Source: a virus
Virus record (IMG/VR): IMGVR_UViG_3300030419_004148
Span: 11,526 to 75,525 of that record
Length of the DNA: 64,000 bases
Strand: one strand, 5' to 3'
Below, piece after piece: positions 1 to 64,000 of the stretch. The position numbers were made by a program, and so were the translations under genes. Numbering within the stretch: position 1 is the first letter of the stretch; each line of letters begins with the position of its first letter. The notes under the pieces are model-generated. The model saw only the letters and a program-made list of their open reading frames with translations. It made no database searches and was not told the origin of the DNA.

Positions 1-2
1 AA

Positions 3-497
3 GCAGGATGGTATTTGCGTTGTGACATTGTATGGGCGAAACCTAACCCCATCCCTGAAAGCGTTAAAAATAGACCCACGCGCTCGCACGAGTTTATATT
101 TCTGCTGTCGAAAAATCCCCAATACTACTACGATATGGATGCCATAAGAGAACCACTGAAGAGTAAGATTGGACCAGCTGTTAATAAGAAAGGAGAAAGA
201 CAAATAGTGGGTAATCCTAAAGGAAAGAACTCAAGAGATGTGTGGTGGATAGCACCTAAATCTATTCGTAATTCACATATTGCTGTGTTCCCCCCAGAAT
301 TACCTAAGAAATGTATATTAGCTGGAACAAAACCCGGCGATATTGTATTAGACCCATTTTCAGGTAGCGGCACTACTTGTAGAGTAGCTCGTGAATTAGG
401 GAGAAAGGGAATTGGTATTGAATTGTCAGAAGAGTATCATAAACTAGCAATGAAATTAACATTTGGAGATAACAGTTCATTAGAGGATTTTCTTTGA
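3..497 (+). CDS. N4-C/N6-A DNA methyltransferase, C-terminal part (5' truncated by window)
   Basis: Frame open to the window edge (AGWYLRCDIVWAKPNP). Family motifs PESVKNRPTRSHEFIFLL and H.AVFP; SAM-binding VLDPFSGSGTT; ends NSSLEDFL (PIP-like). Confidence 0.9.
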   Translation, partial: AGWYLRCDIVWAKPNPIPESVKNRPTRSHEFIFLLSKNPQYYYDMDAIREPLKSKIGPAVNKKGERQIVGNPKGKNSRDVWWIAPKSIRNSHIAVFPPELPKKCILAGTKPGDIVLDPFSGSGTTCRVARELGRKGIGIELSEEYHKLAMKLTFGDNSSLEDFL

Positions 498-560
498 AAG
501 AAGTCCTTATATTTTTGTTCTTTTATTTCTTTTGGCAGAAAGTATTTATGGAGATGAAAA

Positions 561-1064
561 ATGAAAACTAACAATTATACAGGTAAGAATTTTGAGTGGG
601 AAGTGAGAAAATCACTGAAAGATGCTGGATGGTGGTGGTTTAGAATACAAGATACGAATGACGTATCGAGATTCGTTAAGAAAGCCATATCTGAAAAACA
701 ACCCGGCGATTTCTTTGCGGTTGCTGATGGTTTACCCATCTTAATAGAATGTAAAACTAGTAGGAATAAAACTTCTTTTCCACTTTATTATAATAAAACA
801 CCAGCAATTCCAGAACACCAGATACAATACGCATTAGATTTAGTAGATGCTGGTGGTGTTGCTTGGTTTTTAGTGAGAAGAGATGAACCTCGTAATAAAA
901 GAGTGTTTGCATTAAGTCCTCATCAAGTTAGATTAATGTATGATAGTGCCAGTAGAAAGTCAGTTAAATGGCACGTTATAGAGACTTTAGGAATAGAATT
1001 AGAAAGATTATCTAAACCTGTAAGATACGATATAACAAAACTTTTAAATACTACTTTAGGTTAA
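561..1064 (+). CDS. Holliday junction resolvase-like PD-(D/E)XK nuclease (Hjc/RecU-like)
   Basis: GKNFE...PGDFF...LIECKT motif spacing; located in the replication module. Confidence 0.75.
   Translation: MKTNNYTGKNFEWEVRKSLKDAGWWWFRIQDTNDVSRFVKKAISEKQPGDFFAVADGLPILIECKTSRNKTSFPLYYNKTPAIPEHQIQYALDLVDAGGVAWFLVRRDEPRNKRVFALSPHQVRLMYDSASRKSVKWHVIETLGIELERLSKPVRYDITKLLNTTLG
1036..1050 (+). promoter_or_regulatory. Archaeal BRE-TATA promoter
   Basis: CAAAAC-TTTTAAATA; predicted TSS about 1072. Confidence 0.55.
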
Positions 1065-1070
1065 AAAATT

Positions 1071-1160
1071 TGAGGATGCGAGGCTACACAACTGGGGTAG
1101 TCCAAACCGTTATCCAAGCAGGTGAAATTGATTCCTGTGAGCCGTCGGTAAGCATTCTCA
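1071..1160 (+). ncRNA. Candidate structured RNA or 5' leader (~90 nt)
   Basis: Terminal stem TGAGGATGC/GCATTCTCA, internal hairpins GGCTAC/GTAGTC and CAGG/CCTG; GC-rich island starting at the predicted TSS. Confidence 0.5.
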
Positions 1161-1170
1161 TTAGGTAAAT

Positions 1171-1518
1171 ATGTCATTAATTAAAGACTTTCTGGGACTC
1201 GTCGATGAAGATAGCGAAAACATAACTATAGATTCGTTATTTGATAGCGAAGTAGAAAGGTCTGTCTATGATAAATGGATTAAGATATTTACTGATTTAA
1301 AGCCAGTGGCTATAGTGCCAATGCTTGCACAAATCACTGAAACCTATAAAATGAGTAAAGAGGAAGAAATAATAGTCCTTGCTTATGTAAAATATTTTGA
1401 GATAAACATAATGAAAATTAACAAGTTTATGCAAGATGGGTTAGATGGATTAGAGGGAGTAGAAGGAAAGGGAAATGAAAATAAAAAAACTGAATACAGC
1501 GGGTCAATGTTTGGATAA
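1171..1518 (+). CDS. Hypothetical protein (ends SMFG)
   Basis: ORF track; AGGT RBS. Confidence 0.7.
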   Translation: MSLIKDFLGLVDEDSENITIDSLFDSEVERSVYDKWIKIFTDLKPVAIVPMLAQITETYKMSKEEEIIVLAYVKYFEINIMKINKFMQDGLDGLEGVEGKGNENKKTEYSGSMFG

Positions 1519-1783
1519 ACAATTCGAAAACATCTGGTCTAAGAATGGAAAGACAAAGCAAAAGTTAATGGATAAATTAAGAACTCGCAAAATAGAGCAA
1601 ACTTATGATAATTGCCGAGATTATTTTCTTGGCCGTTACGTGTGGATTGTGGACTCGAGAACTGGAAATGGAGAGCATATGAATATAAGAACAGAACAAA
1701 AAGCATTACGGAGACTAAACTATGGAACCACACGCACAATGGAGAACAAATATAGAAAGAAGAACAGAAAGCCTTACAAGTGA
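1475..1783 (+). CDS. Hypothetical basic protein (true start probably downstream)
   Basis: ORF fills the gap in the operon. Confidence 0.5.
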   Translation: MKIKKLNTAGQCLDKQFENIWSKNGKTKQKLMDKLRTRKIEQTYDNCRDYFLGRYVWIVDSRTGNGEHMNIRTEQKALRRLNYGTTRTMENKYRKKNRKPYK

Positions 1784-2030
1784 TTGGTGGCCTTTTGTTG
1801 AAAATATAAAGGAAATATTAGATAAAATGGATGAAATGCATCACGAATTTAATATGCTTGAAAACAAAGTAGATGAAACTATGGGAATGGTTAAGGGCTT
1901 GTATAAGTCTTTACATAAAGTCGGTCTATTCGATAAAGAATTTAAACTTAATTGGAAGGCTGTCGAAAAAATTAATGAGGTCATAAATGACGAAAGAAAT
2001 GAAGGAAGAGAAGAATCCACCGAAAACTGA
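1722..2030 (+). CDS. Hypothetical coiled-coil protein
   Basis: ORF track; heptad-like segment. Confidence 0.6.
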   Translation: MEPHAQWRTNIERRTESLTSDWWPFVENIKEILDKMDEMHHEFNMLENKVDETMGMVKGLYKSLHKVGLFDKEFKLNWKAVEKINEVINDERNEGREESTEN

Positions 2031-2295
2031 GCAAGAGAAAAAAGAAAGATATATGTCTTTGTTTTATGATGCCTTAGAAGAGAACAAACTCTTAAAGGGC
2101 GGAAGAACACACAGATTAAGTATAGGCGGCGTATCACTAGAGATTGTTCCTAGTGCTAAACTATCACCCCGTCAAGTATTTAATATGTATGTTGAGTTTC
2201 TAAAAGAGCTAAAAGAGTTACACGGAGATAAACACTTATTTGCTGCAGTTCCGAAGGAAGGCGCAGAAAATCCGTTTGATGGACTGTTTGGTTAG
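1987..2295 (+). CDS. Hypothetical protein (ends GLFG)
   Basis: GAGGT RBS upstream. Confidence 0.65.
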   Translation: MTKEMKEEKNPPKTEQEKKERYMSLFYDALEENKLLKGGRTHRLSIGGVSLEIVPSAKLSPRQVFNMYVEFLKELKELHGDKHLFAAVPKEGAENPFDGLFG

Positions 2296-62585: not shown

Positions 62586-62622
62586 GGGGACAGGATTCAA
62601 AATAATGTCCCCGATTTTTTTT
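62586..62622 (+). terminator. Hairpin plus T-run
   Basis: GGGGACA...TGTCCCC then T8. Confidence 0.6.
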
Positions 62623-62871
62623 ATGACTAAACCTACTTGGAAAAACTTCTGGATTTGTAATTGTAAGTGGGGCCACCAAAATTGTAATTGTGATGGTAAA
62701 ACTGGGTCCCCCCGAAAATCCGAATAGCACTTTCAAAATTTGACCCGATTTGTTTAAAGGGGTGGATGGTGAAATTGGATTTTGACGTATTTTATTTTAG
62801 AGGGAGGGTATCAAGGAAAAACGGCAGTTTGTCGACGATAAACGGACACGAATAAAGAGAAAAAACACGGC

Positions 62872-62886
62872 CCATATCTTTATATA
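62872..62886 (+). promoter_or_regulatory. TATA promoter
   Basis: TTTATATA upstream of the ORF at 62944. Confidence 0.5.
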
Positions 62887-62943
62887 CGTTCAATACTTCT
62901 TCAAATTAGTTCGGGCCTGTTTAGGACAGTGTCCCCTACGTAG

Positions 62944-63273
62944 TTGGTTATGTCTTCCGAGACAAAATCATACGCCTATATCCGTGTGACCACGGACGAA
63001 TACCCTGCAATCGTAGTTGCCTTAGGTTATGACGATGCGGACAGACCTCGAGGACTAAGAGTCGGGTCGGGAAAAACCCTTGCGGAACTTGCCCAACTTG
63101 CCTTGTCTAAGAGTAAATCCGATGAGTCAAAAATCGCACGTGACTTCTTCTCCCTATGGAGTGGAAAGACCAAGGCGGTTTTAGGACCTAAGACACGCAA
63201 GGAACGAATCAAGGCAGCTTTTGAGTCACTTAGTGACGATGAAAAGGCAGAACTGATTGCATCCTTCGGTTAA
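62944..63273 (+). CDS. Hypothetical (early?) protein
   Basis: ORF with GC-richer codon use; likely ATG at 62950. Confidence 0.65.
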   Translation: MVMSSETKSYAYIRVTTDEYPAIVVALGYDDADRPRGLRVGSGKTLAELAQLALSKSKSDESKIARDFFSLWSGKTKAVLGPKTRKERIKAAFESLSDDEKAELIASFG

Positions 63274-63314
63274 GTCGGTTTTGGCGTTAGGTGGTAAATC
63301 AAACGCAAAAAAGA

Positions 63315-63414
63315 CGCACTAAGGTCGTGGCCTTCCACCCCTACGGGCATAAGGGCCACCCTTAGAGTGCAATGTCAATAAGACACTCTTAAATGGTGCG
63401 CAGGGTATTTTTTT
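63315..63414 (+). ncRNA. Candidate multibranch RNA structure/terminator
   Basis: CGCACT/GGTGCG, AAGG/CCTT, GTGGCC/GGCCAC, AGAGTG/CACTCT, then T7. Confidence 0.4.
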
Positions 63415-63492
63415 ACAATTCTAGCAGGTAATTTTAACTGCTTTAAGGGACTGGAAAACATACGCAAAACTCAAATAAAGAGGTGATAAAAT

Positions 63493-63720
63493 ATGAGAGG
63501 CGAAGGAATTAGCCGTGAAACTGACAAAGGCATAATTTATTCAAACCGCTGTGGTGCTTACTTATGGAAGCACGACGCTGAAGCGGATGAAGCAATTTGT
63601 GTGTCAGCTATGATTGGCTGTAATTGCTACGAGTGCCAAACTTTGCTGTCAAGGTTCAAGCTATTGAGAATCTTAGATAAGCATATGGGAGCAATTGAAA
63701 TATCGGCAAAAAAACGCTAG
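63493..63720 (+). CDS. Cys-rich hypothetical protein
   Basis: GAGGTGA RBS; CNCYEC. Confidence 0.6.
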   Translation: MRGEGISRETDKGIIYSNRCGAYLWKHDAEADEAICVSAMIGCNCYECQTLLSRFKLLRILDKHMGAIEISAKKR

Positions 63721-63732
63721 CTGAAACTGAAC

Positions 63733-64000
63733 GCTCGGTTGGCGTTCTCCGAGCTAAAACTGCCTAACGCGGCAAAACTAAGTGCTGAGCAACACTAAAA
63801 ACTGCTCGCTATATTCACACCGGTTTCATCCCGGCGAAGTTAGCTCCTTTTGTAAACAAAGAGCAGGGAGACGTCCCGACAGCTCGCTACAATTAGCCCT
63901 GCTGGGTAGATGGAGGTTCTGCTTGGAACAGTAGGGCACACAGCAAAATTTGCGGGGTTTGCGGGGTGAGTGGGTCTGCTGCGGCAGGGAGAGAATGCTG
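63733..64000 (+). ncRNA. Candidate structured RNA with tandem H-type pseudoknots (runs off window)
   Basis: Two stem-loops whose loops pair with TGC(C/TC) after an AAAAC linker; further hairpins downstream. Confidence 0.4.

Follow-up and report, generated by a model that had tools for sequence, protein, structure and literature searches.

Loss of short palindromic words from a family of uncultured marine tailed viruses, genome-wide and in a single arm

The 64,000-nucleotide stretch of DNA analysed here (the window; GC content 0.357) covers positions 11526-75525 of the IMG/VR virus record IMGVR_UViG_3300030419_004148, a single linear contig of 75,525 bp (L001) without an end repeat and with a completeness rating of 100%. 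The words GATC, CATG and CCWGG do not occur in it even once, and it is beyond doubt that they have been selected against. The virus is tailed, as it encodes a family B DNA polymerase (PolB), a class II ribonucleotide reductase, glycosyltransferases, a tape-measure protein, an HK97-type capsid protein, a portal and a large terminase. It belongs to an uncultured marine family that has very probably been selected to lose the words by which host defences target DNA, be these defences Type II-like restriction systems or methyl-dependent nucleases. A fourth word, GTAC, is missing from one arm of the genome.

Absence of GATC, CATG and CCWGG and the codon rules behind it

An earlier note on this DNA, made from its letters alone, had reported no copy of the three words, and had put the expectation at roughly 200 for each of the two tetramers and at tens for CCWGG. 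Exact counting returns 0 of each in the window and in the whole 75,525-bp genome. A maximum-order Markov model predicts about 171 GATC, 199 CATG and 53 CCWGG in the window, so that the ratio of observed to expected is 0 and not near 1. With z scores of -18.5, -19.9 and -7.3, respectively, these are the most depleted of all 4-mers and 5-mers in the window. For the whole genome, the Markov expectation is about 203 GATC, 239 CATG and 61 CCWGG (approximately 170-240, 200-240 and 53-61 across models). A second null model, in which synonymous codons were permuted within each of 78 open reading frames (ORFs) so that the proteins and the codon usage of each gene were kept, gives 157 ± 8.5 GATC, 148 ± 9.7 CATG and 43 ± 4.2 CCWGG, and the lowest values among 200 such shuffles were 134, 121 and 33. 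The feature can be described as follows:

Window 1..64000 and the whole 75.5-kb genome, no strand: stretch free of GATC, CATG and CCWGG, from counts, Markov models, synonymous shuffles and codon-pair tables

For every GATC, CATG and CCWGG there is a synonymous change that avoids it, and the words have thus been removed through the choice of codons and codon pairs. The codon-pair tables bear out, without exception, the rules that had been quoted in the earlier note. Proline before glycine is written CCC or CCG in 35 of 35 cases, even though CCA and CCT make up 80% of proline codons, and the Pro-Gly positions listed previously (333, 702, 4520, 5208, 6718, 8979, 14044 and 55803) are all correct. 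All 110 aspartate codons that stand before a codon starting with C read GAC, with GAT at 73% overall. All 119 histidine codons followed by G read CAC, no codon ending in C is found among the 525 that precede ATG, and ATC is never used for isoleucine after a codon ending in G. A small share of the cost of the purge may have been paid in protein sequence, as the at-risk dipeptides are 18-42% below the product of residue frequencies, which is an uncontrolled expectation (Pro-Gly 35 versus 61; Asp followed by Pro, His or Gln 86 versus 121).

This scarcity of at-risk dipeptides, together with the AT-richness and strong codon bias of the genome, is what could be said for a neutral cause such as mutation bias, base composition or a general codon-pair preference. 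However, Markov models of every order and the within-gene synonymous shuffles expect hundreds of sites, and words of the same composition are present in the genome (CTAG 170, AGCT 305, TGCA 278 and CCSGG 39, with ACGT present too). Furthermore, relatives of the same composition, described below, carry CATG at normal density. A neutral cause is extremely improbable, and we consider it refuted by the Markov and synonymous nulls and by the CATG-bearing relatives. The earlier note had also called CTAG, AGCT and GTAC common. This is true of CTAG (148 in the window) and AGCT (261), but the 176 GTAC sites are common in part of the window only.

As a marginal observation, TGGCCA (0 versus 7-10 expected) and GCCAGA/TCTGGC (0) are also absent from the genome; the closest relative has 3-4 TGGCCA.

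Family-wide and lineage-specific losses

Relatives were collected with two anchors, the capsid and the RecU-like gene, which lie in the window as follows:

Window 52862..58598, minus strand: late module with the major capsid protein (52862-53944), the portal (55606-56883) and the large terminase (56919-58598); GTAC about 5 per kb
Window 561..1064, plus strand: RecU-like resolvase gene (PF03838), the anchor for locating the equivalent arm in 29 related contigs

The capsid-based search produced 79 contigs from many samples (634 kb) with capsid proteins 51-92% identical to that of the present virus. The RecU-anchored search added 29 further loci (505 kb), many of them on contigs of 58-81 kb. GATC is absent from all 108 loci, which comprise 1.1 Mb and in which about 3,500 copies would be expected (0 versus 1853 in the capsid set and 0 versus 1702 in the RecU set). 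CCWGG is present in only two of the 108 (1 versus 785 expected in the capsid set, 8 versus 288 in the RecU set). One of these two is L107 (IMG/VR 3300025112_000016), which is syntenic with the present genome and free of CATG and GATC, yet has 8 CCWGG where 23 are expected.

CATG behaves differently. Only part of the family is CATG-free, and other relatives of equal composition have this word at normal density. In the capsid tree, the CATG-free members form three well-supported central groups, which requires 2-3 changes, and none of 500 shuffles gave a number as low. Where CATG does occur in otherwise CATG-free genomes, its sites all lie in segments that are recombinant or lack homology to the present genome. 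In G001, 25 CATG sites fall within the final 10 kb (L087, 45-55 kb). In G003, the head module is CATG-free and nearly identical to that of G002, and the CATG-rich rest (L090-L093, from 18.4 kb) contains 111 sites. Such CATG-bearing patches mark imported segments, and word content thus traces recent recombination.

Further words have been lost in other lineages, namely CTAG in L116, L125 and L126 and CTGCAG in G006. A virus of the same catalogue that is related through its methylase only, L083, contains GATC, CATG and CCWGG and has no CTAG. A distant contig, L089, whose polymerase is about 28% identical over a short stretch, has no GATC or CCWGG and a single CTAG in 11 kb. Different marine viruses therefore bear different purge profiles, as L083 and L089 illustrate. 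As to how these layers arose, the loss of GATC and CCWGG across the whole family would reflect an old and constant pressure, and the loss of CATG would be a layer added in a sub-lineage.

The distribution also bears on whether library preparation, assembly or the virus catalogue could have created the pattern as a technical artefact. Since L083 contains all three words, the purge is not a property of the catalogue. No ORF is interrupted at positions that the words could occupy, and the avoidance obeys frame-specific codon rules. The same pattern recurs in contigs from dozens of samples, and near-identical DNA is found in Logan contigs from at least six studies. An artefact has next to no probability, and we regard it as refuted by the codon rules, by L083 and by the recurrence across independent studies.

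A GTAC-free arm at a fixed map position

The early and replication genes lie on the plus strand, in a block that starts at about 72.6 kb and continues over the contig ends to 29.6 kb; the structural genes, on the minus strand, occupy the genome from 72.5 kb down to 30 kb. The features in and around the GTAC-free arm are the following:

Window 61135..62073, plus strand: Cas4-like PD-(D/E)XK nuclease gene; the GTAC-free arm starts beside this gene in every complete relative
Window 61984..64000, no strand: start of the GTAC-free arm in the window; the last GTAC is at 61980, within the Cas4-like nuclease gene
Window 1..6525, no strand: in-window part of the GTAC-free arm, from the site gap and synonymous shuffles
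Window 1..497, plus strand (gene at genome 11126-12022): C-terminal part of a beta-class N6/N4 DNA methyltransferase of 298 amino acids (PF01555, E 3.4e-59)
Window 5623..7851, plus strand: PolB; the GTAC-free arm stops here or just past

GTAC is missing from genome position 73505, over the contig ends, to 18051, which is a gap of 20,071 bp with a log10 P of about -25. In window coordinates, there is none at 1-6525, one at 6526 (inside PolB), the next at 9906 (genome 21431) and none past 61980. The genes of the arm contain 0 GTAC versus 25.7 in synonymous shuffles, among 300 of which the minimum was 13. The closest relative, G001, has a polymerase 88% identical to that of the present virus and a DNA identity of about 76-78% in both arms. 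There are 19 aligned GTAC sites in its arm, of which the present genome retains 1, having gained none; other palindromes are gained and lost symmetrically between the two genomes. We considered that the GTAC-free arm might be a recent novelty of the present genome and dropped this idea, as most relatives share the arm.

Approximately 24 of the 29 RecU-anchored loci are GTAC-free for 10-15 kb upstream of and around RecU, with GTAC back downstream. In the complete relatives G007, G009, G010 and G011, the GTAC gaps measure 17.1, 23.0, 15.8 and 20.7 kb and lie at the same map position, and the log10 P values for these four and the present genome range from -21 to -41. The gaps of the relatives start beside the Cas4-like nuclease gene and finish near the AAA-ATPase or polymerase genes, and at the nuclease-proximal end each encloses a further stretch, of 7.6-12.7 kb, without CTAG. 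A fifth complete relative, G008, has a partial GTAC gap with few sites left. The control palindromes TGCA, AGCT, ACGT and TCGA are flat in the complete relatives and show no comparable gap. In a profile pooled over 30 loci, the density of GTAC is 0.0-0.3 per kb in the interval between -10 and +3 kb relative to RecU and reaches 2 per kb at +9 kb. The late region shows no GTAC avoidance.

Two side observations concern word densities. Collagen-like repeats of 9 nucleotides (Gly-X-Y) by the capsid gene hold about 50 GTAC in 2.5 kb (G009, L140 14700-17700), and similar clusters are found in G004 and G010. In genome 1-21400 (window interval 1-9875), the counts of TGCA and AGCT are around half of what the local Markov model predicts (54 versus 113 and 67 versus 112, respectively), and both are also scarcer in methylase-bearing arms than in those of other relatives.

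The early arm (L001 654-11088) consists almost wholly of ORFans, with 10 ORFs that have no PHROG match, and in addition encodes a tRNA-Lys(CTT), a 563-residue protein without a family match and an M42-peptidase-like protein. The loss of GTAC, and in many relatives also of CTAG, is limited to an arm of about 16-23 kb that leads from the Cas4-like nuclease gene through the early ORFans to the replication genes. It may be that restriction can reach this arm at a time when no early function yet protects the DNA. One possible, if tentative, explanation is that the GTAC-free stretch (16-23 kb) and the CTAG-free stretch nested in it (8-13 kb) are the DNA that goes first in a delivery that is polar, slow or in two steps. 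The depth of each stretch would then record the DNA that had entered before an early anti-restriction function, encoded by ORFans of the arm, takes effect, and words whose enzymes cannot be neutralised (GATC, CCWGG and CATG) would need to be purged from the whole genome. This leading-DNA model fits because the arm has a fixed map position and an ORFan-rich content, and because the two words share a starting end and differ in depth. Precedents exist in bacteriophages. T5 and BF23 are restricted only when sites lie in the region of first-step transfer (PMC10644984), Murciavirus escapes a Type I system when its leading region has no motif (PMC12455610), and in either case the remaining DNA is believed to be protected by an early function (PMC10644984, PMC12455610). 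Alternatively, the arm could be a hypervariable module with a wider circulation among hosts, or GTAC and CTAG could have some other role in it.

Several points weigh against the leading-DNA model. The G001, G003 and L112 lineages do have GTAC in the arm, at 0.4-0.55 of expectation; no C5 or Dam-type methylase that would explain the retained sites was found in the relatives that keep them. A recognisable anti-restriction gene was not found in the arm, in which the Pfam matches are the peptidase-like protein, RecU and the methylase only. If packaging were headful, with random ends, there would be no ground for a first-injected region (PMC12455610). With regard to physical ends and the mode of packaging, the assembly of G010 is circular and that of G011 wraps round, and one Logan contig extends about 486 nucleotides beyond the right end of the present contig.

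The contig ends themselves are rich in repeats. A motif of about 40 nucleotides starting TTTGCGGGGTGA has copies at both ends (L001 1-220; window 63900-64000), and tandem repeats of 19 nucleotides lie at the left end. Four assemblies (the present genome, G001, G002 and G003) stop at one common repeat-rich spot within the arm, which the G007-G011 assemblies read through. This shared break spot could be either a physical terminus or a repeat that breaks assemblies. Logan contigs aligned to the right end show no pile-up of molecule ends, which contigs by their nature cannot show.

The selecting agent and comparison with known systems

Before turning to host defence, we consider whether the virus or its relatives might be avoiding the action of their own site-specific nuclease or restriction-modification cassette, for example one that degrades host DNA. 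Among the viral genes are three for PD-(D/E)XK-type nucleases and one for an orphan N4-type methylase, and the carriers of this methylase (the present genome, G001, G007, G008 and L107) are exactly the CATG-free genomes, five of five against none of 25 others. However, the nucleases match the resolvase (RecU) and Cas4-like recombination families and are conserved in the family whatever the CATG status. The methylase gene, located just upstream of RecU and assigned to the N4-cytosine type by its motif IV (TSPPY), has no conserved nuclease neighbour: in a search for a restriction-enzyme or nuclease partner, only small ORFs were found to flank it here, in G001 and in L107. Its association with CATG amounts to a single phylogenetic event because L107 is syntenic and has a PolB 64% identical. 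Finally, GATC and CCWGG have been purged also in genomes without any methylase. Such self-avoidance is therefore very unlikely.

The virus has no methylase of its own that protects GATC, CATG or CCWGG. There is no match in it to a Dam-type (PF02086) or C5 (PF00145) methylase, and the single PF01555 methylase is absent from most of the relatives that are free of GATC and CCWGG and cannot act on words that do not occur. As regards its target, comparison with solved structures and NCBIfam yields only the beta-class N6/N4 family. The CTAG ratio in methylase-bearing arms is 0.66 versus 0.27 of expectation (uncorrected p = 0.006; confounded by shared ancestry). As all carriers belong to one lineage, this tolerance of CTAG is a lead rather than evidence.

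The words might also be avoided as signals, either in host processes that depend on GATC methylation (sequestration, strand nicking) or as packaging or regulatory sites of the virus. The near-universal methylation of GATC in metagenome-assembled genomes (MAGs) of marine archaea, mostly by apparently orphan methylases, leaves room for such non-defence roles. Against this stands the complete loss of three unrelated palindromes, and of two more in an arm. Moreover, the losses vary with the sub-lineage and the recombinant patch, which fits variable defence repertoires better than conserved signals, and a viral signal would survive at least once and not vanish everywhere. Hence, we consider this possibility improbable.

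Host defence, the explanation that we favour, would select for word loss through silent changes and leave the proteins mostly intact. We infer from the pattern that restriction would be the selecting agent. Restriction-type pressure fits because the words are short Type II-like palindromes, their removal is silent and shared phylogenetically, it is broken in recombinant patches only, and no Dam-type or C5 methylase is present. The literature is in agreement with such a pressure. Site avoidance is a common antirestriction strategy in viruses (PMC6286503), and haloarchaeal tailed viruses without a Dam methylase have no GATC (PMC8651126). Marine methylomes show methylated GATC in almost every archaeal MAG and methylated GTAC in a single Euryarchaeota MAG (PMC8919816), which matches the words purged here. 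The earlier note had read the absences as a fingerprint of restriction or methyl-dependent systems of the host. The form of the selection fits restriction, but it is only the pattern that points to the agent, and the arm-limited purge of GTAC had been missed.

Two lines of observation speak against this explanation. Firstly, most methylases in marine MAGs are apparently orphan (PMC8919816). Classical restriction at GATC may consequently be rare, in which case methyl-dependent or other GATC-linked pressure would be needed; a methyl-dependent nuclease or other GATC-linked pressure is as likely as classical restriction. Secondly, neither a cognate enzyme for the purged words nor a host was identified. 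A host scan with the capsid alignment across genome contigs found one 4.3-kb contig in a Dehalococcoidales MAG only, which is probably mis-binned, two Atlas look-ups for a host returned viral clusters only, and the phage collection contained no close relative.

The family is probably archaeal. The best solved relatives of PolB are archaeal family B polymerases, and several upstream regions resemble TATA boxes about 25-30 nucleotides before the start codon. The virus resembles the magroviruses, tailed viruses assigned to Marine Group II archaea (PMC10160649), in being marine, in the genome size (about 65-100 kb in that group), in having separate replication and structural modules, and in its archaeal-type family B DNA polymerase, HK97-type capsid, portal and terminase. 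Genes for a DNA ligase and for an ERCC4-type nuclease are found in nearly all magroviruses (PMC10160649), whereas neither has a match in this genome, which is rated 100% complete. The magrovirus and Poseidoniales frame assumed in the earlier note thus lacks both of these markers. With no ligase, no ERCC4 nuclease and no link to a host, the virus is not filed as a magrovirus; such a placement is not supported by these two marker genes.

Restriction-site avoidance as such is known, and its region-limited form is known from T5 and T7-like phages. What is new is the family-wide, layered purge in uncultured marine viruses and the nested, arm-limited pattern, which could be tested as a marker of early-exposed DNA. 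The family offers a clean quantitative case of layered restriction escape in an abundant group of uncultured marine viruses, in which word content can predict the defence repertoire of hosts not yet known. Word content may also flag the early, first-exposed arm in which anti-defence genes should lie. If the leading-DNA model is true, sequence alone could be enough to reveal entry polarity and the early anti-defence region in viruses that cannot be cultured.

In comparison with viral site avoidance as described previously (PMC6286503, PMC8651126), the present case is the same in its complete or nearly complete loss of palindromes of 4-5 bp by silent changes, in the lack of self-methylation and in its variation between lineages. 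It differs in that three words are at absolute zero in 75 kb, and in that the zero for GATC and CCWGG spans a whole uncultured marine family, of which about 1.1 Mb was sampled; no published report of such a purge in marine archaeal-type viruses was found in the literature searched. With T5 and BF23 (PMC10644984) and with Murciavirus, of the Autographiviridae (PMC12455610), the present family shares a region-limited effect, here a word-free, ORFan-rich arm at a fixed map position. Compared with T5, BF23 and Murciavirus, however, the order of entry, fixed ends and an anti-restriction gene are here hypothetical, and the arm is longer, at 16-23 kb or about a quarter of the genome. Two nested depths are seen from the same end (CTAG 8-13 kb, GTAC 16-23 kb), and three other words have been purged from the entire genome.

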